NCBI GenBank assembly: GCA_963844255.1
Contig: CAWJNP010000035.1
Coordinates: forward strand, 137 to 64,136
DNA from: an uncultured beta proteobacterium
Lineage (GTDB): Bacteria; Pseudomonadota; Gammaproteobacteria; Burkholderiales; SG8-39
DNA: 64,000 nt
Reading direction: 5' to 3'
A model generated the notes under the pieces. That model worked only from the letters and a program-made list of their open reading frames with translations, was not told where the DNA came from and did not search any database. A program made the translations under genes and the position numbers. Shown one piece after another: positions 14,539 to 61,319 of this stretch. How positions within the stretch are numbered: position 1 is the stretch's first letter; every line of letters begins with the position of its first letter.

Positions 14539-14559
14539 GTGTCGCTCCTTGGGAGGATC

Positions 14560-15729: not shown

Positions 15730-15735
15730 GAAGGG

Positions 15736-16449: not shown

Positions 16450-17201
16450 GCGATCGCCTCGTCGCCGAGGTAGGCGCGCTTCACTTCGGCGTTGTCGCGG
16501 ATCTCTCCCGGCGTGCCGGTCGCGATGATGCTGCCGTTGACCAGTACCGAGATCCGGTCGGCCAGACGGAACACGGCGTCCATGTCGTGCTCGACCAGCA
16601 GCACGGTCGCGCGTTCGCGAACCCGCCCGATGAGTTCAATCATGCGTTGAGATTCGTCCGGTCCCATGCCGGCCATCGGCTCGTCGAGCAGCACCAGCTT
16701 CGGCTGCGTGGCCAGCGCGAGCCCGACCTCCAGACTGCGCTGTTCGCCATGCGCGAGATTCCCGGCCTGCGTCCCGATGCGCCCTGCAAGCCCGATGTCC
16801 GCTGCGATCCGGCGGGCTTCCTCGAACAGGGCGGCCTCTGACGCAACCGGACGCCAGAACCCGAGGCTCGAGCCGCTGCGTGCCTGCACCGCCAGGGCAA
16901 GGTTGTCCTCGACGCTGAACTTCCCGAAGATGCTGGTGATCTGGTAGCTGCGCGCAAGGCCTGCGCGCACGCGCGCATGTTGAGCTGTTCCGGTGATGTC
17001 CGCACCGTCGAATTCGATCCGTCCGCCATCGGGCGCGAGCGAGCCCGCGATCTGCGCGATCAGCGTGGTCTTGCCGGCGCCGTTCGGTCCGATCAGGGCA
17101 TGCACTTCGCCGCGACGCACCGACAGGCTGACGCTGTCGGTGGCAACGACCCCGCCGAAATGCTTCTGCAGGCCGTCTATTTTCAGGAGCTCGTCACTCA
17201 T
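16446..17201 (-). CDS. livG: Branched-chain amino acid ABC transporter ATP-binding protein LivG
   Basis: MSDELLKIDGLQKHFGGV... with Walker A GPNGAGKTT. The start at 17201 (MSDELL) is preferred over the 17234 ORF start by alignment to E. coli LivG. It has a 4-bp overlap with livF. Confidence 0.88.
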   Translation of the reverse strand: MSDELLKIDGLQKHFGGVVATDSVSLSVRRGEVHALIGPNGAGKTTLIAQIAGSLAPDGGRIEFDGADITGTAQHARVRAGLARSYQITSIFGKFSVEDNLALAVQARSGSSLGFWRPVASEAALFEEARRIAADIGLAGRIGTQAGNLAHGEQRSLEVGLALATQPKLVLLDEPMAGMGPDESQRMIELIGRVRERATVLLVEHDMDAVFRLADRISVLVNGSIIATGTPGEIRDNAEVKRAYLGDEAIA

Positions 17202-22243: not shown

Positions 22244-25200
22244 ATGGAGCGCGCATCGGCTAAAATGCGCAGCTCGATGAAAGCCGAGTTGCAAGCAGAA
22301 TTCCAAACCGATCAGGCTGCGGCACTGGCGGCGGCGCTATCCGCAGCGATCGCGGGAGAGGTTCGCTTCGATGCGGGCAGCCGCGCGGTGTATTCGGCGG
22401 ACGCCTCCAACTATCGCCAGATCCCGATCGGGGTCGTGCTGCCAAAGACCTTCGATGACGTGGTCGCCGCAGTGCGCATCTGTCGCGCGCATGGCGCGCC
22501 GCTGTTGCCGCGCGGCGGGGGCACCTCGCAGTGCGGGCAGTGCGTGAACGTCGCCGTGGTGCTCGATTTTTCGAAGTACCTCGGCCACGTCGTGTCGGTG
22601 GATCCCGCAGCCCGCACCGCGCTCGTCCAGCCCGGTGCCGTGTGCGACGCCCTGAAGGCCGCCGCCGAAGCGCACGGGCTCACGTTCGGCCCCGATCCCG
22701 CGACCCACAGCCGGTGCACCCTCGGCGGGATGATCGGCAACAACTCCTGCGGCGCGCACTCGGTGATGGCGGGCAAGACGGTGGAGAACATCGAGTCGCT
22801 CGAGGTGCTGACCTACGACGGTGCGCGCTTCTGGGCCGGACCGACCTCGGAGGGCGAACTCGAGGCGATCATCGCGCGCGGCGGAAGGCAGGGAGAGATC
22901 TACGCGCAGCTGAAGGCGCTGCGCGACAAGTATGCCGACCTGATTCGCGCGCGCTTTCCGCAGATCAAGCGCCGCGTGTCGGGCTACAACCTCGACCAGC
23001 TTCTGCCGGAGAACGGGTTCAACGTTGCGCGCGCACTGGTCGGCAGCGAGGGCACCTGCGCGATTACGCTGCAGGCAGTCACCCGGCTGGTGAAGAACCC
23101 TGCAGCGCGCGTGGTCCTGATCCTGGGCTTTCCCGACATTTATGCCGCGGGCGACGTGGTGCCGGAGGTGCTGCGTGCGGCGCCGATCGCCTGCGAGGGA
23201 CTCGACGAAAAGATCATCGGTGGCCTGCGCGAGCGTCGCCTGAAACTCGAAGACATCGACCTGTTGCCCGCAGGATCTGCCTGGCTGATGGTCGAGTTCG
23301 GCGCCGCGACCCGGCAGGCCGCCGTGGCACAGGCGCGCGGTCTCATGGATGCGGTCGCGGGCAGGAACCCGCGACCCAGTGCATGGCTGATCGAGGACAA
23401 GCCGACGATCGAGCGCATGTGGACGATCCGCGAGACAGGGGCCTCGGCGACGGCACTGGCGCGCGGCGCGGATGAAGCCACGCGCGGTCCGGACCCGGTG
23501 GTGGGTTGGGAAGATGCTGCGGTCGATCCGCTGCGCCTGGGTGACTACCTGCGCGAATTCCAGGCGCTGATCGATGCCTGCGGGTATCGCACCTCGCTCT
23601 ACGGGCATTTCGGAGACGGCTGCATTCACGCGCGCATCACGTTCGACCTGCGCAGCCCCGAAGGCATCGCGCAATGGCGCGGTTTCCTGAAGCAGGCGGC
23701 CGACCTCGTGGTCAAGTACGGCGGATCGCTGTCAGGCGAGCACGGCGACGGACAGGCGAAGGCCGAATTCCTGCCGGCGATGTATGGCGAGGAACTGATG
23801 GGCGCCTTCCGGGAGTTCAAGGCGATCTGGGATCCGGAGAACCGCATGAACCCGGGCAAGCTGATCAACGCGAATGGTCCGGTGAACGCGGCCGACGCGA
23901 ATCTGCGCCTCGGGCCGGCGTACAAACCGGTCACGTTCGCCACGCGCTTTGCCTTCAGGAGCGATGTGGGCGACGGATTCACGCGGGCGACGGAGCATTG
24001 CATCGGGATGGGAAAGTGCCGCGCGACGTCCGGGGGCACGATGTGCCCGAGCTACCGGGTGACCGGCGAGGAGCGTTACTCGACGCGCGGCCGCGCGCGG
24101 CTGCTGTTCGAAATGCTGCAGGGCGAGGTCATCAAGGACGGCTGGCAGAGCGAAGAAGTGAAGGAGGCGCTCGACTGGTGCCTCGCATGCAAGGGATGCA
24201 AGAGCGACTGTCCCACGCACACCGACATGGCCACCTACAAGGCGGAGTTTCTATCCCACTACCATGAGAAGAAGGCCCGGCCCCACCAGGCCTGGTCGAT
24301 GGGCCGTATCGGCGACTGGGCGCCGCTGGCCGCGAAGTTTCCGCGCATCGCCAATTTCTTCTCCCAGACTGCAGCATTCGCGCCGCTGGCCAAGCGCGTG
24401 TCCGGCGTTGCGCAGGAACGGTCACTTCCCGCATTCGCGAGGCAAAGTTTTCGTGAGCAGTTCAACGTGCTTCACGCCAGCCGTCGGGATCCGGATCAGC
24501 CGCGCGCAGTGCGGCGTGGAGAGCCTGTGATTCTGTGGGCGGACACCTTCAGCAATTATTTCCGTCCGGAAACGGCGCTCGCCGCGGTCGAGGTACTGGA
24601 AGCGGCCGGCTGCCGGGTCAGTATCCCGCCGGAACGCCTGTGCTGCGGGCGTCCCTATTACGATTTCGGTTTTCTGGACGCGGCAAAGGACGCTCTCGCA
24701 CGGATCCTCGAGTCGCTCGGAGCCTCGATCTATTCAGGCACGCCGGTGGTCGGGTTGGAGCCCAGTTGCGTTGCGGTTTTCCGCGATGAGCTGCGCAATC
24801 TGTTCCCGGATGACGAAAGGGCGCAGCGCCTGGCCAGCCAGACGTTTACGCTGGCGGAGTATCTGGAGCGCAGGGAATGGCGTCCTCCGCAGAGGCGCGA
24901 TCTGATCGGCTCGCGTGCGCTGGTGCATGGCCATTGTCATCAGAAGGCAGTGCTCGGCATGCAGTCCGAACTCAGGCTGCTCGAGGCCGCAGGTTTCAGC
25001 GTCGACGTGCCGGATTCAGGCTGCTGCGGCATGGCCGGCTCGTTCGGATTCAATCCGGCTCACTATGCGGCCTCGCAACAGATCGGCGAACGCATCCTGC
25101 TACCGAAGGTGCGTGAGGCGACGGACGAAACCCTGATCGTTGCGAACGGGTTTTCCTGCCGCGAGCAGATCGAACAGGCGACCGGTCGCAAGACGCTTCA

Positions 25201-25270
25201 CATTGCCGAGGTTCTCGCCGGCGTGCTGCGAAATGCGTCTGCTTCCGGCAGCGACGGCCCGCAGGGTTGA
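22244..25270 (+). CDS. ydiJ: FAD-linked oxidase fused to an Fe-S (CCG/GlpC-like) domain, YdiJ-like D-2-hydroxyacid dehydrogenase (1008 aa)
   Basis: N-terminal PCMH FAD-binding domain (GGGTSQCGQ), a central 4Fe-4S CxxCxxC region, and a C-terminal cysteine-rich CCG domain. The size and architecture match E. coli YdiJ. Confidence 0.85.
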   Translation: MERASAKMRSSMKAELQAEFQTDQAAALAAALSAAIAGEVRFDAGSRAVYSADASNYRQIPIGVVLPKTFDDVVAAVRICRAHGAPLLPRGGGTSQCGQCVNVAVVLDFSKYLGHVVSVDPAARTALVQPGAVCDALKAAAEAHGLTFGPDPATHSRCTLGGMIGNNSCGAHSVMAGKTVENIESLEVLTYDGARFWAGPTSEGELEAIIARGGRQGEIYAQLKALRDKYADLIRARFPQIKRRVSGYNLDQLLPENGFNVARALVGSEGTCAITLQAVTRLVKNPAARVVLILGFPDIYAAGDVVPEVLRAAPIACEGLDEKIIGGLRERRLKLEDIDLLPAGSAWLMVEFGAATRQAAVAQARGLMDAVAGRNPRPSAWLIEDKPTIERMWTIRETGASATALARGADEATRGPDPVVGWEDAAVDPLRLGDYLREFQALIDACGYRTSLYGHFGDGCIHARITFDLRSPEGIAQWRGFLKQAADLVVKYGGSLSGEHGDGQAKAEFLPAMYGEELMGAFREFKAIWDPENRMNPGKLINANGPVNAADANLRLGPAYKPVTFATRFAFRSDVGDGFTRATEHCIGMGKCRATSGGTMCPSYRVTGEERYSTRGRARLLFEMLQGEVIKDGWQSEEVKEALDWCLACKGCKSDCPTHTDMATYKAEFLSHYHEKKARPHQAWSMGRIGDWAPLAAKFPRIANFFSQTAAFAPLAKRVSGVAQERSLPAFARQSFREQFNVLHASRRDPDQPRAVRRGEPVILWADTFSNYFRPETALAAVEVLEAAGCRVSIPPERLCCGRPYYDFGFLDAAKDALARILESLGASIYSGTPVVGLEPSCVAVFRDELRNLFPDDERAQRLASQTFTLAEYLERREWRPPQRRDLIGSRALVHGHCHQKAVLGMQSELRLLEAAGFSVDVPDSGCCGMAGSFGFNPAHYAASQQIGERILLPKVREATDETLIVANGFSCREQIEQATGRKTLHIAEVLAGVLRNASASGSDGPQG

Positions 25271-26025
25271 GCGTGCGAGCGGTATTCCTCGCCTTGCTGC
25301 TTGCCGCAGCATGCAATGCCTGGCCGCAAGGCGCCGCAGTTCCAGTCGAAGCGCGACTTTTCGACGCGATCGATGCCGGCAAGGAAATCTACGCCGAAGG
25401 ACTTCTGCTGAACGGCAAACCCGATCTGAATGCACGCAACTCCACGGGCGAAACCGTGTTGCATCGTGCCGTCAGCAAGGGCATGAAGGAACTGGTCCAA
25501 TTGCTGATCAAAGCGGGTGCCAGCGTTCGCGCACGCTCGGGCAACGGCGAGTCCGTGCTGCATCTCGCCGCACTGAACGCCGAGCCGGAGATGACGTCGC
25601 TGCTTCTGGCCGCGGGCGCGGATCCGAAAGCGCGCAACGACGACGGCGAATCGGTCCTGCACTGGGCCGCGCTTTCCGGCAATGCCGCTGTTGTCGCCGT
25701 ATTGCTCGATCACGGAGCCGACCCGGAGGTGGCGGATCTGCGAGGTTATCGTCCGCTGCATTCGGCGGCGGATTCGGGCAGCGTCGAAACCGTGAAACGC
25801 CTGCTGGCGGCAGGCGTGGATCCGGCGGCCAGGAACCGCGCCGGGTTGGGTGCGATCGATGTCGCGCGCGCGCGCGGGACCCCTGAAATCATCCGCCTGC
25901 TGTCCGTTGAAAGTCAGGGCGGTGCTGCCTCGGTCGGCCGGGCCGGCGGGTCGAACCGCGGATCAAACCGCGGGTCGAACTTCGGCACCGTCGATATTGA
26001 TCAGCAGCCCAAGGTGAGCTACTAG
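25267..26025 (+). CDS. Secreted ankyrin-repeat protein (about 5 ANK repeats) with a G-S-N-R repeat C-terminal tail
   Basis: Signal peptide MSVRAVFLALLLAAACNA with repeated TVLHRAV / SVLHLAA / SVLHWAA / RPLHSAA ankyrin motifs. The start overlaps the ydiJ stop (TTGA). The C-terminus is GGSNRGSNRGSN. Confidence 0.85.
   Translation: MSVRAVFLALLLAAACNAWPQGAAVPVEARLFDAIDAGKEIYAEGLLLNGKPDLNARNSTGETVLHRAVSKGMKELVQLLIKAGASVRARSGNGESVLHLAALNAEPEMTSLLLAAGADPKARNDDGESVLHWAALSGNAAVVAVLLDHGADPEVADLRGYRPLHSAADSGSVETVKRLLAAGVDPAARNRAGLGAIDVARARGTPEIIRLLSVESQGGAASVGRAGGSNRGSNRGSNFGTVDIDQQPKVSY
25948..25983. repeat. Short 12-bp tandem repeat (gggtcgaaccgc x about 3) encoding the GSNR repeats of the ankyrin protein tail
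   Basis: Visible direct repeats in the sequence. Confidence 0.7.
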
Positions 26026-27635
26026 CGCAGCAGCCGCTCGGCCGCGCGGACGCCGGCGTAGTGCGCTTCTTCGAACAGCGACATCCCGGACAGGTCCGAG
26101 TGCGCGAACGATAGCGGGCGCTCGAGGCCTGCCAGGATCGTGCGCAGTGGCGCGCCAAGAAAGCCCGGCGCCGGGCGCGGCATCGCATGACCCCAGCGCC
26201 AGATGTCGATGCGCTTCAACATTGACGGAAGCGCAGGGTGCGGGCGGGAGAGTTCAGCGACGATATCGTCCACCCAGCCCTTCCAGGTGGTATTGGCCAG
26301 GCGTGCGCGCGCCTCACGGGCAGTGCCTTCGGTCATTGGACGATACCAGGTCAGTACGGTCGGGCCCGGCCTGGACCGGACTGCCTGATGGGTCGCCACG
26401 ACATACCCAAGCGAGGTGCTGCCATAGAGAACGTTGTCCCAGGCGAGCCCCGCAGGCCCGAGATCCTCGGGCAGGCCGTCCAGGGTCAGGTTGGCAACCA
26501 GCCAGGGCGCGTAGTCGACCTGTGCGCTCGCTTCGCGCAGTCCCGCGGGTGGATTGTCCCAGACGCGTGCAAGCACGAAGGCCGGGGCGGCCCAGATGAC
26601 CTGTCCGGCATGTACCTTGATGGTTCGCTGTTCGGCCGCCAGGTAAATATCAAGTTCCGCACCTTTGCGGCCGGTGGTGACGCGTGTGCAGAGTGCACGC
26701 GCCTGGACGGGTGCCGTGTGGCGCGCGCTCAGCCACTGAATCATGCGCCTCACCAGCCAGCCGTTGCCTTCCGGCCAGGTCAGCACGCTGTGCGGATCGG
26801 AGTGCGCGGCCTGCCCGTCGCGGCAGGCGTGGTAATGCAGGCCGGCCCAGGCCGAGGTTCCCTGCGCGAGCGTTCCGTAGTCGTCCCGGCACGCGTAGTC
26901 GACGTACCAGTTCAGGAACGGGGAATCGAATCCTTGTGTGAACATCCACGCGCGCATCGAGACCTGGTCCAGTTCGCGATGATGCTTGTCCATGCCCGAA
27001 AGGAGGGAGGGCACAGTGAACGGTTTGCGCCCCGCGGCATCCCGCGCCGACTTGTACTTCTCGACGATGTCATCGAAACGCCGGTACTGGTCAAGATCGC
27101 GTTGCGCCACACCCATTCTCGGCAGCAGGCCTTCCTGCCACAGCCCGTTGAAGTACAGGCGCTCGCGCGGTTCGTGGACGAGATAACGCTCGTCGTACAC
27201 GGGAAGCCGGGCGTCGACCGGTCCACTGAGCACGCCCAGATCGGCGAGCAGGGTTCGCACCGAGCGGCTCTCCATGGTCGGCAGCGGCAGGTAGTGCGCG
27301 CCCCATGGGTAGGGGGTGACCGGATTCGCTCCCGAGCGCGCGTTGCCGCCGGGTTCGCCCTCCATTTCGAAGAGCCTGAAATCGGTGACCCCATTCCGTG
27401 CCAGGTGCCATGCCGCCGACAGCCCGCCGATCCCGCCGCCGATGATGGCCACCGGCACATGCAGCGTCTGCTGCGCACTCGCGCGCCCGCGTCCCGGGGC
27501 TGGGTTGCGCAGACGATGGCCGAGTTCAAGGTCCGGGCCGAGCAGCAGACCTTCGGGCTGGGGCACGCCGTTGGCGAATTCGCAGGACGCCAGCAGCGGG
27601 CTGGCAAGTGCGGCGAGGAAGGTGCGGCGATCCAC
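26022..27635 (-). CDS. Tat-exported FAD-dependent amine oxidase-family oxidoreductase
   Basis: N-terminal MDRRTFLAALASPLLASC (Tat RR plus a possible lipobox) and a dinucleotide-binding VAIIGGGIGGLSAAWHL motif. It is the last gene of the SPFH-DUF4178-DUF350-SpeE-like cluster. Confidence 0.8.
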   Translation of the reverse strand: MDRRTFLAALASPLLASCEFANGVPQPEGLLLGPDLELGHRLRNPAPGRGRASAQQTLHVPVAIIGGGIGGLSAAWHLARNGVTDFRLFEMEGEPGGNARSGANPVTPYPWGAHYLPLPTMESRSVRTLLADLGVLSGPVDARLPVYDERYLVHEPRERLYFNGLWQEGLLPRMGVAQRDLDQYRRFDDIVEKYKSARDAAGRKPFTVPSLLSGMDKHHRELDQVSMRAWMFTQGFDSPFLNWYVDYACRDDYGTLAQGTSAWAGLHYHACRDGQAAHSDPHSVLTWPEGNGWLVRRMIQWLSARHTAPVQARALCTRVTTGRKGAELDIYLAAEQRTIKVHAGQVIWAAPAFVLARVWDNPPAGLREASAQVDYAPWLVANLTLDGLPEDLGPAGLAWDNVLYGSTSLGYVVATHQAVRSRPGPTVLTWYRPMTEGTAREARARLANTTWKGWVDDIVAELSRPHPALPSMLKRIDIWRWGHAMPRPAPGFLGAPLRTILAGLERPLSFAHSDLSGMSLFEEAHYAGVRAAERLLR

Positions 27636-27699
27636 AATCGGTCAGGGCGGGTTCAGCCGGCTGCGCCCGGACGTGGATCGAACGGTGGCTCCGCCCATG

Positions 27700-29199
27700 T
27701 CAGCGCAGCACCCGATGCCATTCCGACTCGAAGGTGCGCACCAGAACCTGGTTGTTCAGGCGGTTGACTTCGGCCGGGACGCGCGCCATGTCGGCGGGAA
27801 AGTCCAGCATGGATTTCAGCGTGTCCGCCGTGAGGTAGCGTGTTGGAACCGGGAAGGATGCGGGGCGTGCATATTCGCCGCGTCCGGCGATGATGTAGCC
27901 CCATTCACCGAACGAAGGCACGTAGGCGTGGTAAGGCGCGGTGCGCAGGCCCGCATCCTCGAGCGTGGCGACGATGCACCAGAAGGATTGCCGCGCATAC
28001 AGCGGCGAGGTGGCCTGGATCACCGCCAGTCCGCGCGCCGAAAGACGTTTTTCAAGGAGGCGGTAGAAGGCGCTCGAATACAGCTTGCCGAGCGAATAGT
28101 TGGATGGATCCGGAAAATCGATCACGACAAGGTCGAATGTCTCCGGATGGGTGTCCAGCCAGACGAAGGCGTCCTCGTTCACTACCTTGAGTTTCGGCGA
28201 GGAGAGCGATCCGAGGTTCATTCCCGCGAGCAGGGGATTTTCGCGAAACAGGCTGGTCATCCTGGCATCGAGGTCGACGAGCGTGATCGATTCGATCTGC
28301 GAATACTTGAGCACTTCGCGTGCCGCGAGGCCGTCGCCGCCGCCGAGGATCAACACCCTGCGGGCACCCGGCAGGGTGGCCAGGGCTGGATGAACCAGGG
28401 CCTCGTGATAGCGGTATTCGTCACGCGAGGAGAACTGCAGGTTGCCGTTGAGGAACAGGCGCACGTCGTCCCGCCAGCGTGTGATCACGATCCGCTGGTA
28501 AGGCGTCGAGCCGGCGTACACGATCTGGTCGGAATAGATGCCTTCCTCGGCGAGCGTGGTCAGGTACCCGGAAAAGCCGAAACCGGCCATCAGCACCGCG
28601 AATGCGGCAACCCCCTGGGCGCGCAGGGCGCGCGCGCCGCGATGGGCCGCGCCCAGCAGCCGGATCGCCCAGAGCGCGACCAGCACATTGAGCAGGCCGA
28701 ACAGAAATCCCGTGCGCATTAGTCCCAGGTGCGGCGCGAGCACAAGCGGGAACAGAATCGACACTGCAAGTGCTCCGAGGTAGTCGAAGCTGAGCACCTG
28801 GGCCACCAGTTCCCGGAAGTCGATCTCGCTTTTCAGGATCCGCATGATCAGCGGTATTTCGAGTCCCACCAGCACACCGGTAAGCGATACCGTGGCGTAA
28901 AGCACGAGGCGGAACGCATCGGTCAGGTGCGCGAAAGCGAGAAACAGGAACGCCGCCGAGCAACCGCCGATCACCCCCACAAGCAGTTCGATCTGCACGA
29001 ACCACACCACGAGTGCGCGTCCGATGTAGCGTGACAGCCACGAACCGATTCCCATGGAAAACAGGTAGGTACCGATGACCGTGGAAAACTGGGTGATCGA
29101 ATCCCCCAGCACGTAGCTTGCGAGCGCGGCCGAGATCAGTTCGTAGGCGAGTCCACAGGATGCAACGACGAAGACGGAAAAAAGAAGCGCGTGGCGCAC
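27700..29199 (-). CDS. speE: Membrane-anchored polyamine aminopropyltransferase (spermidine synthase-like, about 7 TM N-terminal domain)
   Basis: TM-rich N-terminal half followed by the aminopropyltransferase core (ILGGGDGLAAREVLKY, VDLD). Confidence 0.8.
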   Translation of the reverse strand: MRHALLFSVFVVASCGLAYELISAALASYVLGDSITQFSTVIGTYLFSMGIGSWLSRYIGRALVVWFVQIELLVGVIGGCSAAFLFLAFAHLTDAFRLVLYATVSLTGVLVGLEIPLIMRILKSEIDFRELVAQVLSFDYLGALAVSILFPLVLAPHLGLMRTGFLFGLLNVLVALWAIRLLGAAHRGARALRAQGVAAFAVLMAGFGFSGYLTTLAEEGIYSDQIVYAGSTPYQRIVITRWRDDVRLFLNGNLQFSSRDEYRYHEALVHPALATLPGARRVLILGGGDGLAAREVLKYSQIESITLVDLDARMTSLFRENPLLAGMNLGSLSSPKLKVVNEDAFVWLDTHPETFDLVVIDFPDPSNYSLGKLYSSAFYRLLEKRLSARGLAVIQATSPLYARQSFWCIVATLEDAGLRTAPYHAYVPSFGEWGYIIAGRGEYARPASFPVPTRYLTADTLKSMLDFPADMARVPAEVNRLNNQVLVRTFESEWHRVLR

Positions 29200-29292
29200 T
29201 TACGGACGCTCTCTGATCGAATGGGGTGCGGGTCGGCGAAATTCGCCGCACCCGTTTACGACTGAAATCGCGTCGATGCCGGAAGCAACGGC

Positions 29293-29508
29293 TCAGCCAT
29301 GAACCGAGGCCGCGACGATGAGCGCGATCCCAAGGCACATGGCGCCGACGACGATGGCAAGGGAGAGATTCTGCTTCTCGACGATTTCCTTCCACAGATC
29401 GTATGGCGTGATCTTGTCTATGATCACGAACGAAAGCCAAAATACGACGATCCCGAGTATCGAGTAGATGATCGAGTTGAGAAGGTACTGCGGATTGACG
29501 AAGTCCAT
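29293..29508 (-). CDS. DUF350 small membrane protein (YjfL-like)
   Basis: 71 aa with two TM helices, typical DUF350 size and sequence pattern. It sits between the DUF4178 and SpeE-like genes. Confidence 0.75.
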   Translation of the reverse strand: MDFVNPQYLLNSIIYSILGIVVFWLSFVIIDKITPYDLWKEIVEKQNLSLAIVVGAMCLGIALIVAASVHG

Positions 29509-29726
29509 CTTGGTGGTCTCCTATTTGTGGGATATGCGGCTCGAACCGCCTGACGTGCGCTGGCTTGAACTGTGTTGTGCAACGGAATCCGAATTCGGGA
29601 GAAACGTCATGCCATGCTGCTGGGCATAGGTGAAGAAAGACAGCGCCGCTGCGCTGATGACGAGGTAGATGTGTCTCACCGGAGAGCCCTCATGGCCGGG
29701 CTGCGCGGGTGGCAGGCGCCGCGCGG

Positions 29727-31667
29727 TCAGTCATCATCGTCATCCGATTCGGTTTCCCGTGGGTGATCACTATCGGCCCAGCGGCGGATCTCGAAGGCGC
29801 GCGATCGCCATGCAACGAAAAGCGGCAGCAACAGCAGACCGATTTGCAGCGCCAGCCAGTTGTACCAGGATGGCGATCCCCGTTCGACCCGGAGCCTCGC
29901 TGACACCGCCCGTCGGGCGTCCCTGGGCAGGTCGGTCGATATGTTCAGGAGGTACTTTCCCGCCGGCACCCCCGAGAACACGGCGTCGTCGCTGCGGGTG
30001 CCTTCGCTCCAGGATTCTCCGTCCGTGTAACCGCTGTAATGCGCGAGTTCGCGGTCGCTGCGCCAGGATTTCCCGGTATCGGGATCGACCAGGGTGTAGG
30101 TCAGGCTCATCCAGCCGTTGTCGAGGTCGGTCTCGGTGCGCACCACGACGTTGGTTGCGGCACCCGTGATTTCGAACGGTTGCGTCGTGATGCTTTTTTC
30201 TTCCCCCGGGGAAATTGCGATCCGGTCGCTGTGCACGGTTTGGCTGCGCAGCGCGAAGAACAACTGTACGCACAGTGCAAGCACCGTAAAGATTGCGAAG
30301 TGCTTCCAGACCGTGGCGCCGGTTTCAGCCCAGGGGGAAGGCTGGTTGGACGCAATGTCTTTCGGTTCCGGCAGCCCTGATTTCAGACCGAACGCGACCT
30401 GTATTTCCTGCGGTGTGGCGTACCTTCCGGCCGACCAGCTGAGCTCCTTCTCGGTTCGCTCTGCGCTGATGATTCGCGGGGGTGCGACATAGTCGACCAC
30501 CTTGACTTCATCGCCGACCTTGACCCGCCAGTAGAATTCGCCAAGCACGTGCAGGACCGTCGCATCGTAGGTCTGGAATTCGTCGTAGCGCTCACCATCG
30601 TAGATGACAGCCGAAGTGGCCATCACTGGCGGCTTGTCGGCGGTGCGCACGAAGCTCCAGTGTCCGTCTGACTCGACCAGCCAGCGGTAACCCTCCTTGG
30701 CGTTGAACAGCAGGTACTCGCTCCAGGTGAATCGTATCTGCGGGCCGTCGGTCGACATGCCGCGGCGCATGTGCCCGATGACTTCCCACTTGACCCTGTC
30801 GATGATGCCGGTCGAATTCAGCTCCAGGCGCATCGGAAACGCCTGATTCTCCTGTGCCGTTGCCACCAGCTGAATGGTCTTGTTTCCAGTATCGAGAATC
30901 GAGCGGCATCCGGGGCAGGCGTACGTGAGGATGCTCTTGTTGGAAAGCTTGAAGGGCGCGGCGCACGCCGGGCAGTTCAGGGCTTCGACGCTGATCTTCT
31001 CGGTGATCCCGAATCCGCCGGATCCGGGCTTGTGTCTTTCCGGATCGCGCAGATTTGCAAGTTTCAGGCCGCGCACCTCGGCGCGCTCACCCAGATAGAC
31101 GCGCACCCCGTCATCGGCGTAGTCGAGGGTCGCAAACTCGGTTCCACGGCGCAGATCGACGACCGGCGCGCTGAAGCCGGGGCCTACCGTGAAGGGCAGT
31201 TCACCCTGCCCGGCGATGCAGACGGCATTCTCGATATTACCGACTTCGAACGGCCCCTCGCTGTCGGCCTTGCCCAGATCGATCCGGTCACCTGCCCGGA
31301 TGGCATCGTACGATGGCACACCGCCCGGCGCAGGGACTTCGAAGGTGACATAGAATTCCCCGCCGGCCTCTCCGAGCCAGCCATTGCGCATATCGTCGAA
31401 CAGCAGGTACCACTCGTTCCAGAGGCCTTGTTCGTAGCGCAGCTGGATCCGTCCGATGACGCCGAAATGCACCCCCTTGTGGACGCCTTCGGTTCCTATC
31501 TGGATAAGGGTCGGGTCGTCCTGAAGCTCGGCCATGCGGCCGATGTTTTCAAGCGCCTCACCCTTGCGAACGATCGTCGAAGTGCAGTACTCGCAGACGG
31601 CGATGACCGATGAAGCGGCACGAAACAGGACCGGCGCGCCACAGGACGGACAGCTGCCAGTCTTCAT
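29727..31667 (-). CDS. DUF4178 domain protein with an N-terminal zinc-ribbon (CPSCGAP...CEYC)
   Basis: 646 aa with two Cys pairs at the N-terminus and repeated beta-rich DUF4178-like modules. It has a C-terminal TM segment plus an acidic tail. Confidence 0.7.
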   Translation of the reverse strand: MKTGSCPSCGAPVLFRAASSVIAVCEYCTSTIVRKGEALENIGRMAELQDDPTLIQIGTEGVHKGVHFGVIGRIQLRYEQGLWNEWYLLFDDMRNGWLGEAGGEFYVTFEVPAPGGVPSYDAIRAGDRIDLGKADSEGPFEVGNIENAVCIAGQGELPFTVGPGFSAPVVDLRRGTEFATLDYADDGVRVYLGERAEVRGLKLANLRDPERHKPGSGGFGITEKISVEALNCPACAAPFKLSNKSILTYACPGCRSILDTGNKTIQLVATAQENQAFPMRLELNSTGIIDRVKWEVIGHMRRGMSTDGPQIRFTWSEYLLFNAKEGYRWLVESDGHWSFVRTADKPPVMATSAVIYDGERYDEFQTYDATVLHVLGEFYWRVKVGDEVKVVDYVAPPRIISAERTEKELSWSAGRYATPQEIQVAFGLKSGLPEPKDIASNQPSPWAETGATVWKHFAIFTVLALCVQLFFALRSQTVHSDRIAISPGEEKSITTQPFEITGAATNVVVRTETDLDNGWMSLTYTLVDPDTGKSWRSDRELAHYSGYTDGESWSEGTRSDDAVFSGVPAGKYLLNISTDLPRDARRAVSARLRVERGSPSWYNWLALQIGLLLLPLFVAWRSRAFEIRRWADSDHPRETESDDDDD

Positions 31668-31721
31668 GACATCTTTCCGTTTCCTGCGCGGATTTTTCTG
31701 GGATCCCTGAGTTCGTCCGGT

Positions 31722-32843
31722 TCAGCCGAGCTTCTTCAGCAGTTCGGCCTTCTTTGCGTCGAACTCCTGCTGGGAAAGAATGCCTTTCCCGACCAGGCCG
31801 TGAAGTTTTTCCAGCGTCGCCATGACTTCGTCGGTAGTCGAAGCGGGCGAACTGCCGGCCGCAGCTGCGCCGGCTGCCGCGCCGATGGCTGCACCGGCCG
31901 CCGGACTGCCGGCAGGTGCTGGTGGTTGTCCCCCCGCAGGTGCAGGGGCGGCCGGACCCGGTTGTCCGGGCTGCATCGCCGCCATGGCGCCTGCCATGCC
32001 GGCAGCCATCTGGCCGCCGATTCCGACACCCGCCGCGAGGCTGGCGCCGATACCGGCCAGGCCACCCTGATTGGCTGCAGCGATCGGGATTGCATTGGCC
32101 GTCTGGTATTGCGTGTAGCGGTTCATGTCGCCGAGCATGTTCATGCCGATTCGAGTATCCAGGACCTTCTGGATTTCCTCGGGCAGGGAGATGTTCTCCA
32201 CCACAAGGCTGTCCAGCGTCAGGCCGAGGCGGGTGAACATCGGCTCCATCTGTACCCGGACTGCCTTGGCGAATTCGAGTTGATTGCCGGCCATGTCGAG
32301 AAACGGAACATTGCCCGAGCCGAAGGCGCTGGAGATCGCCGAGATCATGGTGTTTCGCAGCTGCCCGTCGAGATCTTCAACAGTGAATGTGTCGCGCGTG
32401 CCGCTGACTTCCCTGTGGAATGTTTTCGGGTCGGTCAGGCGGTACGAATAGATGCCGAATGCGCGCAGCCTTACCATCCCGAAATCCTTGTCGCGGATCG
32501 TGATCGGGTTCGGCGTGCCCCATTTGCGATCGAGGCGCAGGCGGGTTGAAAAGAAGTAGACGTCGCTCTTGAACGGGGAAGCGAAGAGCTTGTCCCAGTT
32601 CTTCAGGTTGGTCAGCAGCGGCAGGGTCTGCGTGGTCAGCTTGTACAGCCCGGGGCCGAACGCATCCGCCAGGTTGCCTTCGTTGATGAATACCGCCATC
32701 TGGGATTCGCGCACCGTCAGCTGGGCGCCGTTCTGGATCTCGAAATCCTCCATCGGATAGCGGTAGGCGAGGATTTCGTCCCCGTCTTCCGTCCAGTGGA
32801 TGACATCAATAAACTGCTTCTTGATGAAGTCCATCAGCGCCAT
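31722..32843 (-). CDS. SPFH/band-7 domain protein with Gly/Ala/Pro-rich linker and C-terminal SHOCT domain
   Basis: SPFH core, a low-complexity AGxG/PAxPA linker, and a terminal SHOCT motif ILSQQEFDAKKAELLKKLG. Confidence 0.8.
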   Translation of the reverse strand: MALMDFIKKQFIDVIHWTEDGDEILAYRYPMEDFEIQNGAQLTVRESQMAVFINEGNLADAFGPGLYKLTTQTLPLLTNLKNWDKLFASPFKSDVYFFSTRLRLDRKWGTPNPITIRDKDFGMVRLRAFGIYSYRLTDPKTFHREVSGTRDTFTVEDLDGQLRNTMISAISSAFGSGNVPFLDMAGNQLEFAKAVRVQMEPMFTRLGLTLDSLVVENISLPEEIQKVLDTRIGMNMLGDMNRYTQYQTANAIPIAAANQGGLAGIGASLAAGVGIGGQMAAGMAGAMAAMQPGQPGPAAPAPAGGQPPAPAGSPAAGAAIGAAAGAAAAGSSPASTTDEVMATLEKLHGLVGKGILSQQEFDAKKAELLKKLG

Positions 32844-32916
32844 GGCGACCCCCCCCGCATAGACGAAAGAATCAGCCTAGCACAAGCCAATTCAGGTTGC
32901 AGTCGTGGCGTGAGCG

Positions 32917-33591
32917 CTAGAGCAGTCCTCGTTCGGCGAAGGACAGGGTCGATCGACCCGCCACGATAAAGTGGTCAAGCACCTTCACGTCGACCATCGC
33001 GAGCGCCTCCTTCAGCTGGCGCGTAAGCAGTTCGTCGGCCTGGCTCGGCTCGGCCACGCCGCTGGGATGGTTGTGGGCGAATATTACGGCCGCCGCGTTT
33101 GCCTTCAACGCAGCCTTCACGATTTCCCTGGGATAGACGCTGGTCTGAGTCAGGGTGCCGCGGAACAGTTCTTCGGCCGCGATGACGCGATGCTGCGCGT
33201 CGAGGAACAGGCTGACGAATACCTCGTGCTCGCGGGTGCCAAGCGCGAGGCGCAGGTAGTCGCGCACGGCCTGTGGCGAAGTCAGTGCGCTGCGTGCCCT
33301 GATTTCCTCGGCGAGCGAACGCCGTGCAAGTTCCAGCACTGCGACGAGCTGCGCCAGTTTGGCGCTGCCCAGGCCCCGGACCGCACGCAGGGCGGCCTGG
33401 TCTGCAGAAAGGAGTCCGCGCAGACCGCCGAATGCAGACAACAGCTCGCGCGCGAGTTCCACAGCGCTCTTGCCGGGGATTCCGGTGCGCAGGAACAGCG
33501 CGATCAGCTCCGCGTCGGAAAGCACCCCGGCGCCAAGAGCGAGCAGACGTTCGCGCGGCCGCTCGGCGGCCGGCCAGTGTGAAATCGCCAT
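32917..33591 (-). CDS. radC: RadC-family JAB/MPN domain protein (UPF0758)
   Basis: HhH N-terminus and the JAMM motif HNHPSG...D. It starts at the ATG at 33591 (the 502-aa ORF upstream of this is spurious). It is divergent from coaBC as in E. coli. Confidence 0.85.
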
Positions 33592-33630
33592 GCGGATTTC
33601 TTTCCCGTAGAATGCCCCTCCCGTGTAAAC

Positions 33631-34860
33631 GTGCGCGGCGGAAAACCGATGACAGCGCAGATGACTTCGAATGTCGGAAAACGCGTTCTCCTGGGAATGA
33701 CGGGAGGGGTTGCGGCGTTCAAATCCGCTCATCTGGTACGCCTGCTCGTCAAGTCGGGCTACGACGTGCGGGTCGTGATGACCGAAGCCGCATGCCGGTT
33801 CATCACGCCAGTCACGCTGCAGGCCCTGTCCGGGCAGACGGTATGGACCGACCTGTGGGATGCGCGCATTCCGGACAACATGGGCCACATCGAGCTCTCG
33901 CGCGACCGCGATTTGGTCGTGATCGCCCCTGCGTCGGCGGATTTCATGGCCAAGGTCGTGCACGGTCTTGCAGATGACCTGCTTTCCACGCTGTGCCTTG
34001 CACGCGACTGCCCGCTGATGCTCGCGCCCGCGATGAACCGCCAGATGTGGGACAACGCGGCGACGCAGAGAAACGTCGCCCAACTGCGCAAGGATGGCGT
34101 GCTGTTTGCGGGCCCGGAGGCCGGAGACCAGGCCTGCGGCGAGACCGGAATGGGCCGGATGCTGGAAGCAGAGCAGATCTTCGAGGAGATCGAGGCCTGC
34201 TTTCAGCCGAAAATTCTGGCGGGAAAACGCGTGCTTGTCACCGCCGGTCCGACCCGCGAGCCAATCGATCCGGTGCGCGCGATCACCAATTCGAGTTCCG
34301 GAAAAATGGGCTACGCGGTGGCGCGGGCGGCGCGCGAGGCGGGGGCGCAGGTCACGCTGGTCAGCGGACCGACGGCGCTGGCGACACCCGCGGGCGTGGT
34401 GCGCATCGATGTGGAGAGCGCGCAACAGATGTTCGAGGCCGTCAAGAAGGCGGTCGCCTCCGTCGATATCTTCATTTCAGTGGCGGCCGTCGCGGATTAT
34501 CGCGTCGCCGACCAGTCGAAGCAGAAGATCAAGAAGGGCGAGCGCAAGGTAATGACGCTGGAGCTGGTCGAGAATCCGGACATCCTCGCCCATGTGGCCA
34601 GGCTGGCGAAGCCGCCGTTCTGCGTGGGATTTGCCGCGGAGACCGAAAAGCTCGCGGCACACGCGATGCAGAAGCGCGAAAGGAAGGGCATCCCCCTGCT
34701 CGCGGCCAATCTTGCCCAGCATGCGCTGGGTGCCGACGAAAACGAGCTCACGCTGTTTGATGCGAATGGCGAACACCGGCTAGCGCGCGGTCCCAAGCTG
34801 GGGCAGGCGCGAAGCCTGATCGCTCACATCGCGGCGCTGCTCGCACGCAAGAAACGCTGA
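33631..34860 (+). CDS. coaBC: Bifunctional phosphopantothenoylcysteine decarboxylase/phosphopantothenate-cysteine ligase CoaBC
   Basis: Flavoprotein N-domain ([13 protein letters not shown]) and a CoaB C-domain. The real start is likely the Met at 33649. It shows radC-coaBC-dut synteny. Confidence 0.9.
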
Positions 34861-34862
34861 AC

Positions 34863-35312
34863 GTGCGCCGCCTCGACGTAAAGATCCTCGACGCGCGCCT
34901 CAAGGGCAATCTTCCGGCGTATGGGACACCGGGAGCGGCGGGTCTCGATTTGCGCGCCTGTCTGGAGGACGCGCTGGTACTGCAGCCAGGAGACAGCCAT
35001 CTGGTGCCTGCGGGAATTGCAATCCATATCGGCGATCCGGGTTACGCCGCAGTGATTCTGCCGCGCTCCGGGCTCGGGGCCAAGCATGGCATCGTCCTCG
35101 GCAATCTCACCGGACTGATCGATTCGGACTACCAGGGCCAGATCTTCATATCGCTCTGGAATCGTGGCAAGGCCTCGTTCACGGTCAATCCGATGGAACG
35201 GATTGCGCAGCTCGTCGTCGTCCCGGTCGCACAGGTCGAGTGGAACGTGGTCGATGAGTTCGCGGCCAGCGAACGCGGTAATGGCGGATTCGGCAGCACC
35301 GGAAAGCACTGA
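34863..35312 (+). CDS. dut: dUTP diphosphatase
   Basis: 149 aa, near-colinear with E. coli Dut ([28 protein letters not shown]). GTG start 2 nt after the coaBC stop. Confidence 0.92.
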
Positions 35313-35356
35313 GTGACGTACAGAGTCGCGAGGCCGGCATCGCCCGGCAGATTGGC

Positions 35357-35962
35357 ATGAAGGTCCGTGCCCTTGCAGTGTGGCTGGGTCTGTTGCTGAT
35401 TCCCGCGTCTGCGGTATCCAGCGCCGAGGAGCTCGACCGCGCGAAGGAAATCATTGCAGGCAGGTGCTTTCTCTGCCACGGCATGACGGGCGAGAGTTCG
35501 ACAGAGCTTTATCCGAGACTGGCTGGACAGCATCCACGCTATCTGGAGAAGCAGCTCAAGGATTTTCGCGCCGGACGACGCATTGGCGGCAGCATGGAAA
35601 AGATGGCCGCCGATCTGAACGATGCGGATATCGTTGGACTCGCTGTTTTTTTCAGCATGCAGAGGTCGGGCGCCGTTGTGGCGGCTGACCCTGTGCTCAT
35701 CGCGCCGGGACGCACGCTGTTTCTGGCAGGCAATCCTGGTGCGGGCTGGCCGGCATGCGCGTCCTGCCACGGGGAGAAAGGCGCCGGTACCGAAAATCTG
35801 CCGAGGCTGGCAGGACAGCTCCCCGACTATCTGGTCCGTCAACTCAGGAATTTCAGAAATCGCGTGCGTACCAACGATAACGAAGTGATGCACGCAATCG
35901 CGGAACGTCTGTCTGAAACGGAAATCCAGGCGGTGTCGGCATACCTGAGCGCGCAGGACTAG
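35357..35962 (+). CDS. Dihaem cytochrome c4
   Basis: Signal peptide with two CxxCH motifs (CFLCHG, CASCHG) in a 201-aa protein. Confidence 0.85.
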   Translation: MKVRALAVWLGLLLIPASAVSSAEELDRAKEIIAGRCFLCHGMTGESSTELYPRLAGQHPRYLEKQLKDFRAGRRIGGSMEKMAADLNDADIVGLAVFFSMQRSGAVVAADPVLIAPGRTLFLAGNPGAGWPACASCHGEKGAGTENLPRLAGQLPDYLVRQLRNFRNRVRTNDNEVMHAIAERLSETEIQAVSAYLSAQD

Positions 35963-61255: not shown

Positions 61256-61319
61256 GGCACGACTCTCGGCAAGCGAGTTCAGTCGTAAATTGCGGCGCCT
61301 CGGCACTGTCGTGACGTCT

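Follow-up and report, generated by a model that had tools for sequence, protein, structure and literature searches.

A conserved six-gene operon predicted to combine an SPFH membrane-scaffold set with enzymes acting on polyamine-like amines

Gene content of the operon

Six genes were called on the minus strand at positions 26022-32843 of the window, the whole 64-kb stretch of DNA that was analysed, with an intergenic spacing of 12-93 bp and a common direction that make the arrangement operon-like. Five co-directional genes had been described in an earlier note; all of them are present, with domain assignments that Pfam and NCBIfam profile matches bear out, and the sixth, coding for a microprotein of 52 aa, had been missed. 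Judged from its domains, the operon would pair a set of membrane-scaffold proteins with enzymes making and oxidising polyamine-like amines. This type of operon is experimentally unstudied, and it is real and widely conserved among bacteria.

The first gene (31722-32843) codes for an SPFH (Band_7_1) protein of 373 aa (Pfam PF13421, 2.3e-76; PF01145, 1.8e-15), in which an SPFH core lacking an N-terminal TM helix is followed by a Gly-zipper hydrophobic segment (around residues 250-292), a Pro/Ala-rich linker and a C-terminal SHOCT domain, the last scoring 25.5 bits, slightly below Pfam's cutoff of 27 bits. This tail architecture is kept in 13 homologues, and the SPFH gene lies directly 5' of the DUF4178 gene in 70 of 77 loci. 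The DUF4178 gene (29727-31667) encodes a membrane protein of 646 aa that matches the DUF4178 profile in two stretches (4.4e-25), each preceded by a CxxC...CxxC zinc ribbon (ribbons at residues 3-34 and 227-260, DUF4178 at 60-196 and 285-418). Two TM segments (447-473 and 601-630) enclose a beta-sandwich (476-596), predicted to be periplasmic and flanked by two long helices in the AF2 model, and the protein ends in an acidic tail, ...SDHPRETESDDDDD. DUF4178 was named in a single work in our literature search (a preprint and its published version), so the DUF-containing members are as uncharacterised as the earlier note had held.

Directly 3' of the DUF4178 gene, an ORF at 29521-29679 codes for the microprotein, MRHIYLVISAAALSFFTYAQQHGMTFLPNSDSVAQHSSSQRTSGGSSRISHK, which carries no annotation, matches no Pfam or NCBIfam family and was missed by one gene caller, being uncalled on the Logan copy of the contig. 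It has a GTG start with a GAGGG Shine-Dalgarno sequence 7 nt upstream, and consists of a single N-terminal TM helix, an F..AQ..G motif, a Gly/Ser-rich tail, whose charge distribution suggests a periplasmic location, and a C-terminal His-Lys. A homologous ORF occupies the same place in 76 of 76 loci (72 distinct sequences), with the His-Lys invariant in all of them, and in 34 of 48 loci its start shares 1 nt with the stop codon of DUF4178, which points to translational coupling to DUF4178. Next comes a DUF350 (YjfL-family) protein of 71 aa with two TM segments (29293-29508; Pfam PF03994, 2e-15), whose match covers profile positions 6-66 of 133 and equals half of the 4-TM repeat of E. coli YjfL. 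Among relatives the gene occurs either in this short, downstream form (20 loci) or upstream of SPFH in a 133-aa form (52 loci), which shares 32-40% identity with YjfL of E. coli.

The two remaining genes code for enzymes. The first (27700-29199) encodes a membrane-fused aminopropyltransferase of 499 aa (Spermine_synth, 6.4e-35; NCBIfam NF002956, 666 bits against a cutoff of 472), with about seven TM helices in residues 1-215, counted by reading the sequence and by a crude hydropathy scan, and a catalytic domain of spermidine-synthase fold (about 220-499). All 36 family members have intact YHE, GGGDG, VDLD and D[FL]PDP motifs. Among proteins of solved structure, the enzyme comes closest to broad or long-chain polyamine aminopropyltransferases and to thermospermine synthase (7xif, 3anx/1uir, 6bq2; E 1e-30 to 1e-32). 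The second (26022-27635) codes for a predicted Tat-exported lipoprotein of 537 aa from the FAD amine-oxidase superfamily (Amino_oxidase, 4.1e-15; NAD_binding_8, 2e-13), with the signal MDRRTFLAALASPLLAS followed by C (N-terminus MDRRTFLAAL...LLASC) and a GxGxxG at around residues 64-71. All 25 oxidase homologues carry the RR motif and 21 match the lipobox Cys pattern; in the other four a Cys ends the hydrophobic region (PGC or PAC), outside the pattern used. The periplasmic FAD amine oxidase of the earlier note is thus upheld in export signal and superfamily, and is in addition a predicted lipoprotein. No PDB relative was found at sequence level; Foldseek searches with the AF2 model (pLDDT 89) returned putrescine oxidase, MAO, PPOX, LAAO and SpdH at 14-19% identity (target-normalised TM up to 0.77), a range of matches that places the enzyme in the flavin amine oxidase superfamily but assigns it no substrate.

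Conserved core and accessory enzyme genes

Conservation was counted over 80 genome loci at species level, whose flanks are unrelated, and the denominators vary by gene. An identical gene set in identical order was found in Burkholderiales, Nitrosomonadales, Rhodocyclales, Methylococcaceae and Competibacteraceae, co-conservation spans at least five orders, and the carriers include the cultivable Methylogaea oryzae. Because the same genes recur in the same order across these groups while the genes flanking the cluster in the window (RadC, ankyrin) do so in 0 of 80 related loci, the arrangement far exceeds chance. A gene-neighbourhood search was the check by which the earlier note had proposed that its cluster be judged, and across the 80 loci the outcome speaks strongly in favour of co-conservation.

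These neighbourhoods also bear on an anti-phage or abortive-infection membrane system, which we consider very improbable. Defence islands often contain such motifs as SPFH, SHOCT, zinc-ribbon membrane proteins and a neighbouring RadC gene, and both SPFH and SHOCT domains are known from certain defence settings. The cluster itself has a RadC-like JAB gene as its direct upstream neighbour, and PADLOC gave a weak match of the methyltransferase-fold domain to mad2. However, this match is confined to the generic SAM-binding fold, no PADLOC model was matched by the SPFH, DUF4178 or DUF350 proteins, and RadC adjoins none of the 80 relatives. Furthermore, relatives lie among housekeeping genes, such as birA and coaX in Ferribacterium or purD in a Burkholderiales MAG, and occur in at least 513 candidate stretches of a one-genome-per-species collection.

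The genes are not equally constant. DUF4178 and the microprotein occur together in every one of 76 loci, and the DUF350 gene is present in 72 of 80. The aminopropyltransferase (SpeE-like; 29/69 loci), the oxidase (24/62) and an AdoMet decarboxylase (SpeD; 16/62) form a frequent accessory module outside the invariant core, present in about 40% of relatives and in under half of the loci. The polyamine enzymes of the earlier description are therefore present in this cluster, but not part of its conserved core. Where they occur, the enzyme genes almost always lie 3' of SPFH-DUF4178-microprotein(-DUF350), co-directional and separated by short gaps, in several orders and with differing flanks. This near-constant position argues against an ordinary operon for synthesis and catabolism of polyamines (spermidine or longer) placed by chance beside unrelated membrane-protein genes. 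Such an operon, which we regard as unlikely, would account for an enzyme scoring above the cutoff of the NCBIfam equivalog model 'polyamine aminopropyltransferase', for SpeD adjoining in those 16 relatives and for an oxidase whose fold resembles, among others, those of putrescine oxidase and spermidine dehydrogenase. However, housekeeping polyamine metabolism does not tether its synthase to the membrane or use a lipid-anchored oxidase in the periplasm, and cytoplasmic synthesis with periplasmic oxidation within one operon makes no simple pathway.

Relation to known operons

The operon type is already known from comparative genomics, the microprotein gene being additional. Ravi et al. 2024 (mSystems, PMC11237479) described PspA/CesT-DUF350-DUF4178-TM-spermidine-synthase operons, for example Shewanella oneidensis SO_3763-3766, and a variant with a band-7-2TM-SHOCT protein instead of PspA and with AdoMetDC and a polyamine oxidase in addition. 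They linked all these components to PspA-type membrane systems, and remarked that the clustering of a membrane-domain/SpdSyn-like fusion with DUF350 and AdoMetDC had also emerged from work on the gene linkages of AdoMetDC (PMC11237479). The idea that a band-7/SHOCT protein takes the position of PspA is thus stated in that work. The window shares with these operons DUF350/YjfL, DUF4178 and a 7TM-fused spermidine-synthase-like enzyme, and with the variant a band-7 protein with hydrophobic segment and SHOCT in place of the CesT-PspA dyad, a polyamine oxidase and a lipoprotein component, AdoMetDC being found only in the window's relatives. In contrast, PspA and CesT are absent from the window, and neither a Ctha_1186 lipoprotein nor an RHH regulator was noticed among the genes of the cluster. 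Additionally, the DUF4178 of Ravi et al. is an intracellular beta-rich protein (PMC11237479), whereas here it is duplicated, each copy following a zinc ribbon, and fused to a TM-beta-sandwich-TM-acidic-tail module; the obligate microprotein gene after DUF4178, common to the window and its relatives, is mentioned neither in PMC11237479 nor in one supplement file to it.

The likeness to the E. coli yjf neighbourhood drawn in the earlier note extends, at the level of detectable homology, no further than DUF350/YjfL. The yjfIJKLMC cluster codes for DUF2170, the PspA-like YjfJ, DUF2491, the DUF350 protein YjfL, DUF1190 and the peptide--spermidine ligase YjfC; only DUF350/YjfL is detectably common, and the other five proteins (YjfI, YjfJ/PspA, YjfK, YjfM and YjfC) gave no tblastn match in the window or the 80 related loci. 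Likewise, homologues of PspA, DUF2170, DUF2491, DUF1190 and ATP-grasp proteins were undetectable in the window. Homology of DUF4178 with YjfK/DUF2491 found no support (hhalign probability 1-3%). What the two clusters have in common is DUF350/YjfL, an enzyme of polyamine chemistry and a membrane-associated scaffold protein, the enzyme being an aminopropyltransferase here and an ATP-grasp ligase in E. coli, and the scaffold SPFH instead of PspA.

In B. subtilis, the SPFH protein YdjI is soluble and depends on both YdjG and YdjH for its recruitment to the membrane (PMC8581546; bioRxiv 10.64898/2026.02.06.704340). The window resembles this pspA-ydjGHI (samGHI) operon in combining a zinc-ribbon membrane protein, small membrane proteins and an SPFH protein, but lacks PspA and a YdjH with its TPM domain; the domain of YdjG is a different one from DUF4178, and the SPFH tail consists of Gly-zipper and SHOCT rather than a zinc finger. 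Unlike the window, the B. subtilis operon is controlled by sigma-W and has no polyamine enzymes. A further parallel is offered by the MFS-spermidine-synthase-like fusions (NCBIfam NF037959), in that a membrane domain fused to an SpdSyn-like domain clusters with DUF350 here too and, among the window's relatives, with class 1b AdoMetDC. Li, Kurihara, Kim, Liang and Michael reportedly linked these fusions to AdoMetDC and DUF350 in 2019. The aminopropyltransferase of the window belongs to a different family, since it scores 22.8 bits with NF037959 (cutoff 40) and 666 bits with NF002956.

Proposed membrane complex and amine chemistry

The most likely reading is an SPFH scaffold or sensor complex docked at the membrane, with aminopropylation and oxidation as an optional module, that is, a cytoplasmic-membrane complex with an enzymatic add-on serving cationic amines and envelope homeostasis, to which we give a probability of about one half. 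The core would consist of the DUF4178 protein, its coupled 52-aa microprotein, the DUF350/YjfL membrane protein and the soluble-type SPFH protein with its Gly-zipper and SHOCT. The DUF4178 protein would span the membrane twice, with both zinc-ribbon/beta-barrel repeats and the acidic tail in the cytoplasm, and its periplasmic beta-sandwich could be a sensing or ligand-binding element. By analogy with SamG/SamH/SamI (YdjGHI) of B. subtilis, the integral membrane proteins may dock and organise SPFH oligomers at the inner face of the membrane, an analogy of architecture between membrane partners that are not homologous.

Local polyamine synthesis and oxidation, as the earlier note had it, agrees with the enzyme domains; the AdoMet decarboxylase is missing from the 64-kb window and the oxidase is known to superfamily level only. 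As SpeD is not encoded in the window, a supply of decarboxylated AdoMet is assumed; some relatives encode the decarboxylase beside the cluster, and this genome presumably does so at another place. At the membrane, the 7-TM-anchored aminopropyltransferase would then transfer an aminopropyl group to an amine, in the simplest case a free diamine or polyamine, and the lipid-anchored flavin oxidase would oxidise an amine on the periplasmic face. The two enzymes would jointly set how much cationic amine is present at the membrane surface, as a contribution to envelope homeostasis. Another membrane-fused SpdSyn-like family is said to have made no spermidine in the 2019 work of Li and colleagues, which calls for caution in assuming a free-polyamine product.

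That family reportedly acts on a non-putrescine substrate, a point in favour of a protein- or lipid-directed aminopropylation, in which the enzyme would modify a membrane-bound amine instead of a free polyamine and the periplasmic oxidase would process or remove the modification. We find this rather unlikely, and the same holds for its candidate targets, such as the lysine that ends the microprotein, a lysine of some other protein or the headgroup of an amino-lipid. It is consistent with the invariance of the microprotein His-Lys and with the 7-TM tether of an enzyme whose closest counterparts of solved structure accept a broad range of substrates. Ravi et al. also speak of 'aminopropylation of other substrates' (PMC11237479). 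In addition, YjfC of the thematically related E. coli cluster now carries the annotation peptide--spermidine ligase (Pederick et al. 2023, cited in PMC10948618), indicating that polyamine-peptide chemistry exists within the operon theme. However, the microprotein tracks DUF4178 and not the aminopropyltransferase, which points to a primary role independent of aminopropylation; its tail is probably periplasmic, whereas chemistry with dcAdoMet should be cytoplasmic, and the acidic amine-binding motif D[FL]PDP, typical of polyamine-using enzymes, is retained.

Lastly, the link to stress sensing that had been suggested for the cluster stays a conjecture. The conserved promoter-like element upstream of the SPFH gene looks like an ordinary housekeeping sigma-70 extended -10 and not like a stress sigma-factor site. 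No sigma-E- or sigma-54-like elements were obvious in the upstream regions when read by eye, and a generic promoter scan did not flag the extended -10-like element. This element, TGTGCTAGGCT (32874-32884, minus strand), was read from the sequence by consensus resemblance only and lies about 30 nt 5' of the SPFH start codon; TGCTAG(A/G)(A/C)T or TAGAAT-type elements are found at a similar position 5' of SPFH in most of 16 related loci inspected.

Gene content and conservation of the cluster

Six genes lie on the minus strand between 26022 and 32843, five of which had been listed there by the earlier note, whose positions are correct as written and whose domain calls agree with the Pfam and NCBIfam matches of all five proteins. 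These code for an SPFH (band-7) protein of 373 aa (31722-32843; PF13421 Band_7_1, 2.3e-76; SHOCT 25.5 bits, below the Pfam cutoff of 27 bits), a DUF4178 protein of 646 aa (29727-31667; PF13785, 4.4e-25, in two stretches with a CxxC...CxxC zinc ribbon before each), a DUF350 protein of 71 aa (29293-29508; PF03994, 2e-15, half of the profile covered), an aminopropyltransferase of 499 aa (27700-29199; PF01564, 6.4e-35; NCBIfam NF002956, 666 bits against a cutoff of 472) and an amine oxidase of 537 aa (26022-27635; PF01593 Amino_oxidase, 4.1e-15; NAD_binding_8, 2e-13). The sixth gene lies within the 218 bp that separate the DUF4178 gene from the DUF350 gene and codes for a single-pass microprotein of 52 aa (29521-29679), with homologous ORFs in relatives. 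Intergenic gaps in the cluster are 12-93 bp, GC content around the locus is 0.61-0.68, and the best relative, a MAG of Betaproteobacteria from groundwater, shares 68-85% amino-acid identity with the cluster.

When one genome per species was scanned with a sequence pattern, relatives of the DUF4178 protein were found in at least 513 candidate stretches, among them stretches of the cultivable Methylogaea, Dechloromonas, Azonexus and Ferribacterium, and the best 80 were taken with 10-kb flanks each and all their ORFs compared by tblastn and jackhmmer. These 80 loci were drawn from Burkholderiales, Nitrosomonadales, many Rhodocyclales, Methylococcaceae and Competibacteraceae. An SPFH-SHOCT gene was found directly upstream of the DUF4178 gene in 70 of the 77 loci with room for it, and a DUF350 gene in 72/80. 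The aminopropyltransferase gene lies immediately downstream in 29 of 69 loci with room (and within 10 kb in six more), the oxidase gene is present in 24/62, and a homologue of class 1b AdoMet decarboxylase (SpeD) in 16/62, either just after the oxidase gene or divergent upstream of the SPFH gene. Co-conservation of the cluster genes in related genomes, which the earlier note had proposed as a test of the neighbourhood, is therefore borne out. Furthermore, 23 of the 24 oxidase-bearing loci have an adjacent aminopropyltransferase. No SpeD was detected in the 64-kb window by tblastn or motif regex, and the window carries the full core and accessory set minus this gene.

The genes on either side of the cluster in the window, a co-directional RadC-like gene upstream and a convergent ankyrin-repeat gene downstream, were found in 0/80 loci, and the flanks of the other loci consist of unrelated housekeeping genes. 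Chance adjacency of the cluster genes is ruled out by their co-conservation across 80 loci with differing flanks. All these counts point to an invariant core, formed by the DUF4178 protein and the microprotein and nearly always by DUF350 and SPFH proteins, together with a frequent accessory module of aminopropyltransferase and oxidase, with or without SpeD.

The DUF350 protein occurs in two forms, one of 71 aa encoded after the microprotein gene (20 loci, the window being of this type) versus one of 133 aa encoded upstream of the SPFH gene (about 52-53 loci). The longer form is 32-40% identical to E. coli YjfL, whereas that of the window is half as long, with two TM segments. In the Competibacteraceae loci (L061, L056, L058, L068, L074 and L077) the DUF4178 protein and the microprotein are kept while SPFH and DUF350 are missing; in the only one of these inspected, L061 from Ca. 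Competibacter, unknown ORFs and a TrkA_N-domain protein lie ahead of the aminopropyltransferase (12183-18020 of that locus). Additionally, in the Methylogaea oryzae locus (L083, 14284-18036) a HAMP-SpoIIE phosphatase, DUF6272, SiaC and GGDEF proteins, which together make up a SiaABCD-like signalling module, are encoded between the aminopropyltransferase and oxidase genes.

Core proteins and accessory enzymes

The microprotein ORF of the window, MRHIYLVISAAALSFFTYAQQHGMTFLPNSDSVAQHSSSQRTSGGSSRISHK, begins with GTG, 7 nt downstream of a GAGGG. A homologue was found in 76/76 genome loci with sufficient sequence downstream of the DUF4178 gene, by which these loci had been selected, and for three relatives gene callers had predicted unnamed ORFs of 47-63 aa in this position; the gene calls of the Logan copy of the same contig lack it. 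The 76 loci gave 72 distinct sequences. In each, the N-terminal part forms a single hydrophobic helix and the tail is rich in Gly and Ser; an F..AQ..G motif is nearly invariant, and all of them end in His-Lys. In 34/48 loci the start codon of the microprotein gene (ATG) shares one base with the stop codon of the DUF4178 gene, an arrangement that usually marks translational coupling. No Pfam or NCBIfam model matched the microprotein, even at E<=10, and at least three near-identical matches were found in a database of 5.8 billion proteins.

The DUF4178 protein is conserved over its entire length and gave a confident AF2 model (83 homologues; pLDDT 85, pTM 0.74), in which a zinc ribbon (3-34) and a beta-domain (60-196) are followed by a second zinc ribbon (227-260) and beta-domain (285-418), with a conserved NQPSP linker. 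The C-terminal part consists of a helix (447-473), a beta-sandwich (476-596) and a second helix (601-630), then FEIRRWADSDHP...DDDDD. We infer from this layout that the N-terminal repeats and the acidic tail would be cytoplasmic and the beta-sandwich periplasmic. The SPFH protein has no N-terminal TM helix; its core is followed by a Gly-zipper segment (IP.AA.NEGG.AG.GA..G.G.G) and a SHOCT domain, conserved and highly conserved respectively, which are joined by a Pro/Ala linker that varies. None of the solved structures is similar to it in sequence.

Regarding the enzymes, the aminopropyltransferase has about seven hydrophobic helices ahead of its catalytic domain, according to our reading of the sequence and a crude scan. 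The catalytic domain is closest to broad and long-chain polyamine aminopropyltransferases and thermospermine synthase (E about 1e-31), with classical spermidine synthases ranking behind (1e-18 to 1e-25). The window protein retains the motifs YRYHEAL(V/I)H, GGGDG, (V/I)DLD and D(F/L)PDP intact, as do 36/36 family members. The score above the NF002956 cutoff, together with the intact motifs for binding dcAdoMet and amine, indicates that the window enzyme is a predicted member of the polyamine aminopropyltransferase family. The fused MFS/spermidine synthase family (NF037959) was also considered and discarded, as its cutoff of 40 bits is well above the 22.8 bits scored by the window enzyme.

The oxidase belongs to the flavin amine oxidase superfamily (PF01593, 56.4 bits against a cutoff of 19.8), with the dinucleotide-binding GxGxxG motif and the two-domain amine-oxidase fold. 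Its AF2 model (pLDDT 89) was matched by Foldseek about equally to putrescine oxidase (PuO), MAOs, protoporphyrinogen oxidase (PPOX), L-amino-acid oxidase (LAAO) and spermidine dehydrogenase at 14-19% identity, with E about 1e-22 and target-normalised TM up to 0.77 (PuO, MAO, PPOX, LAAO). By sequence, it had no match in the PDB, and its top NCBIfam match, to PigB, was partial and far under the cutoff (56.6 vs 850). The N-terminus in the window, MDRRTFLAALASPLLAS-C, combines a twin-arginine motif of the (S/T)RRxFL type, a hydrophobic region and a lipobox Cys. The RR motif is present in 25/25 oxidase homologues from the loci and the hydrophobic stretch ends in Cys in all of them; 21/25 match the lipobox pattern, and the remaining four have PGC or PAC there. 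The twin-arginine motif and the terminal Cys thus predict a Tat-exported lipoprotein.

Our preferred reading, to which we assign a probability of about 50%, is that the core forms a membrane-docked SPFH scaffold or sensor complex, co-expressed in this lineage with enzymes that would tune the cationic amines there. The DUF4178 protein, the microprotein and the DUF350 protein would be the base on which SPFH docks, and the amines would be adjusted by the tethered aminopropyltransferase and the periplasmic lipoprotein oxidase. Alternatively, the transferase could aminopropylate a protein or lipid amine, for instance the terminal lysine of the microprotein; this is unlikely, and is weakened because the microprotein follows DUF4178 rather than the enzyme. 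A plain polyamine pathway among unrelated neighbours seems rather improbable, since the linkage is conserved in order and localisation signals are present. We hold as a doubtful, more speculative idea that the undescribed single-pass microprotein, of about 45-60 aa and ending in His-Lys, is the invariant partner of a long-form DUF4178 subfamily in an SPFH-organised protein or lipid polyamination system, where the substrate of the SpeE-like enzyme and the oxidase would be an amine bound to the membrane (such as the terminal lysine or an amino-lipid) and not free putrescine. If true, this would supply a substrate for the "polyamine-independent" aminopropyltransferases that Li et al. 2019 reportedly proposed.

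Relation to known systems

Ravi et al. 2024 (PMC11237479) reported both the E. coli-type yjfIJKLMC operon and operons such as Shewanella SO_3763-3766, in which CesT/Tir-PspA is joined by DUF350/YjfL, DUF4178, a lipoprotein and a spermidine-synthase-like enzyme fused to 7TM; their one-sentence description of a band-7 variant fits the family of the window cluster. Those operons and the cluster have in common a YjfL-family DUF350 protein and a DUF4178 protein, and the replacement for the CesT/Tir-PspA dyad, a "band-7 + C-terminal 2TM + SHOCT" protein, corresponds to the SPFH protein and its tail in the window, with SHOCT just below the cutoff. With respect to the polyamine genes of those operons, the window has the TM-SpeE and the amine oxidase, and SpeD is adjacent only in relatives. 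The TrkA_N protein of the Ca. Competibacter locus recalls the K+-channel component of E. coli-type operons in that work. An example accession, the long ZnR/2xDUF4178/2TM architecture and the microprotein are absent from the paper's text and one supplement file.

The earlier note had likened the cluster to E. coli yjfJKLMC, with an SPFH protein in place of PspA. The latter holds, as band-7/SHOCT was found and PspA is absent from the window. The analogy itself stands for DUF350/YjfL, the sole protein of yjfIJKLMC with homologues in the window family, and fails for YjfI, YjfJ, YjfK, YjfM and YjfC. No tblastn match was found for PspA-family YjfJ or DUF2170 YjfI in the window (E<=1) or the 80 loci (E<=1e-3), nor for DUF2491 YjfK in either; the DUF1190 lipoprotein and the GspS-like ATP-grasp YjfC likewise gave no tblastn match, and no such Pfam domains occur in the five cluster proteins and ten flanking ORFs. 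DUF4178 as a homologue of YjfK/DUF2491 is not supported (hhalign probability 1.2% and 3.4%; no Pfam cross-match at E<=10). A short pattern, kWEV...EYLL.n.e.gF..L.E...W.f, is common to E. coli YjfK (~159-206) and the window DUF4178 protein (~290-343), with a non-significant hhalign P of 0.013-0.044. The interpretation given earlier is thus partly right: its theme is backed by the literature (PMC11237479), and the enzymes proved to be accessory, not core (29/69 and 24/62 loci).

In the E. coli operon, which is related in theme, YjfC is now annotated as a peptide--spermidine ligase (Pederick et al. 2023, as cited in PMC10948618; RefSeq name in E. coli K-12, L085, 10029-11192), so that conjugation of peptides with polyamines is an established chemistry there. 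Among systems studied by experiment, B. subtilis YdjGHI/SamGHI comes nearest to the core, a likeness that is architectural and not one of family membership: two membrane proteins, one of them with a zinc ribbon, bring the soluble SPFH protein YdjI to the membrane, and PspA is then recruited by YdjI (PMC8581546; bioRxiv 10.64898/2026.02.06.704340). Features of SamGHI missing here are PspA (no tblastn match), the TPM-domain YdjH (no TPM_phosphatase in the cluster proteins) and a YdjG-type protein. That the cluster is a defence system is very improbable: PADLOC-DB 2.0 gave no match for the SPFH, DUF4178, DUF350 and RadC proteins, and the contexts in relatives are housekeeping ones. The PADLOC matches obtained are to generic folds in the two enzymes (the SAM-binding region of the aminopropyltransferase to mad2; the FAD-binding region of the oxidase, E 0.0012).

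Operons of this type have been catalogued in silico before and have never been studied experimentally. To this our analysis adds the obligate microprotein, a quantified core/accessory split, the prediction that the oxidase is a lipoprotein, the finding that the catalytic motifs are intact, and a confident DUF4178 model. SPFH, DUF350/YjfL, DUF4178 and membrane-fused spermidine-synthase-like proteins are widespread. The cluster family overturns no current view; it offers a clean natural dissection of an invariant membrane core (DUF4178, microprotein, DUF350, SPFH) from detachable enzymes (aminopropyltransferase, oxidase, SpeD), which opens to test both how soluble-type bacterial SPFH proteins dock at membranes and which target membrane-tethered aminopropyltransferases modify.

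Upstream elements and flanking DNA

A promoter-like element, TGTGCTAGGCT (32884-32874 (-)), which looks like a sigma-70 extended -10, precedes the SPFH start by about 30 nt, and a hairpin (32893-32869) overlaps it. Most of the 16 relatives inspected carry TGCTAG(A/G)(A/C)T or TAGAAT-type elements at comparable positions ahead of their first cluster gene; by eye, no obvious sigma-E- or sigma-54-like elements were seen in the upstream regions of the window and these relatives, and Rfam gave no match at E<=0.1 in 25000-35500. Terminator-like hairpins within the cluster are not enriched (10 vs 7.2 +/- 3.3 in shuffled sequence). The sequence itself gives no pointer to a stress-specific control.

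Lastly, the RadC-like ORF upstream (502 aa, 32917-34425 (-)) carries its JAB domain in residues 281-501 only, so that its true start is probably near 33600. Just past the convergent ankyrin-repeat gene, a 1008-aa ORF (22244-25270 (+)) has 4Fe-4S dicluster and CCG domains fused to an FAD-linked oxidase (FAD_binding_4/FAD-oxidase_C). Next to a dihaem-type cytochrome c (35357-35962 (+)) is encoded the flavoprotein of a flavocytochrome c sulfide dehydrogenase (36001-37170 (-)), a pair that suggests a sulfur-oxidising lifestyle of the host. Over 61163-64000, GC content falls from about 0.60-0.65 to 0.39, and a putative transposase-like ORF of 347 aa (61163-62206 (-)), recognised by reading the sequence, overlaps the 3' end of an ABC-transporter-membrane-domain-like ORF (60160-61314); an IS insertion or foreign DNA probably accounts for this stretch, which lies at the end of the contig.
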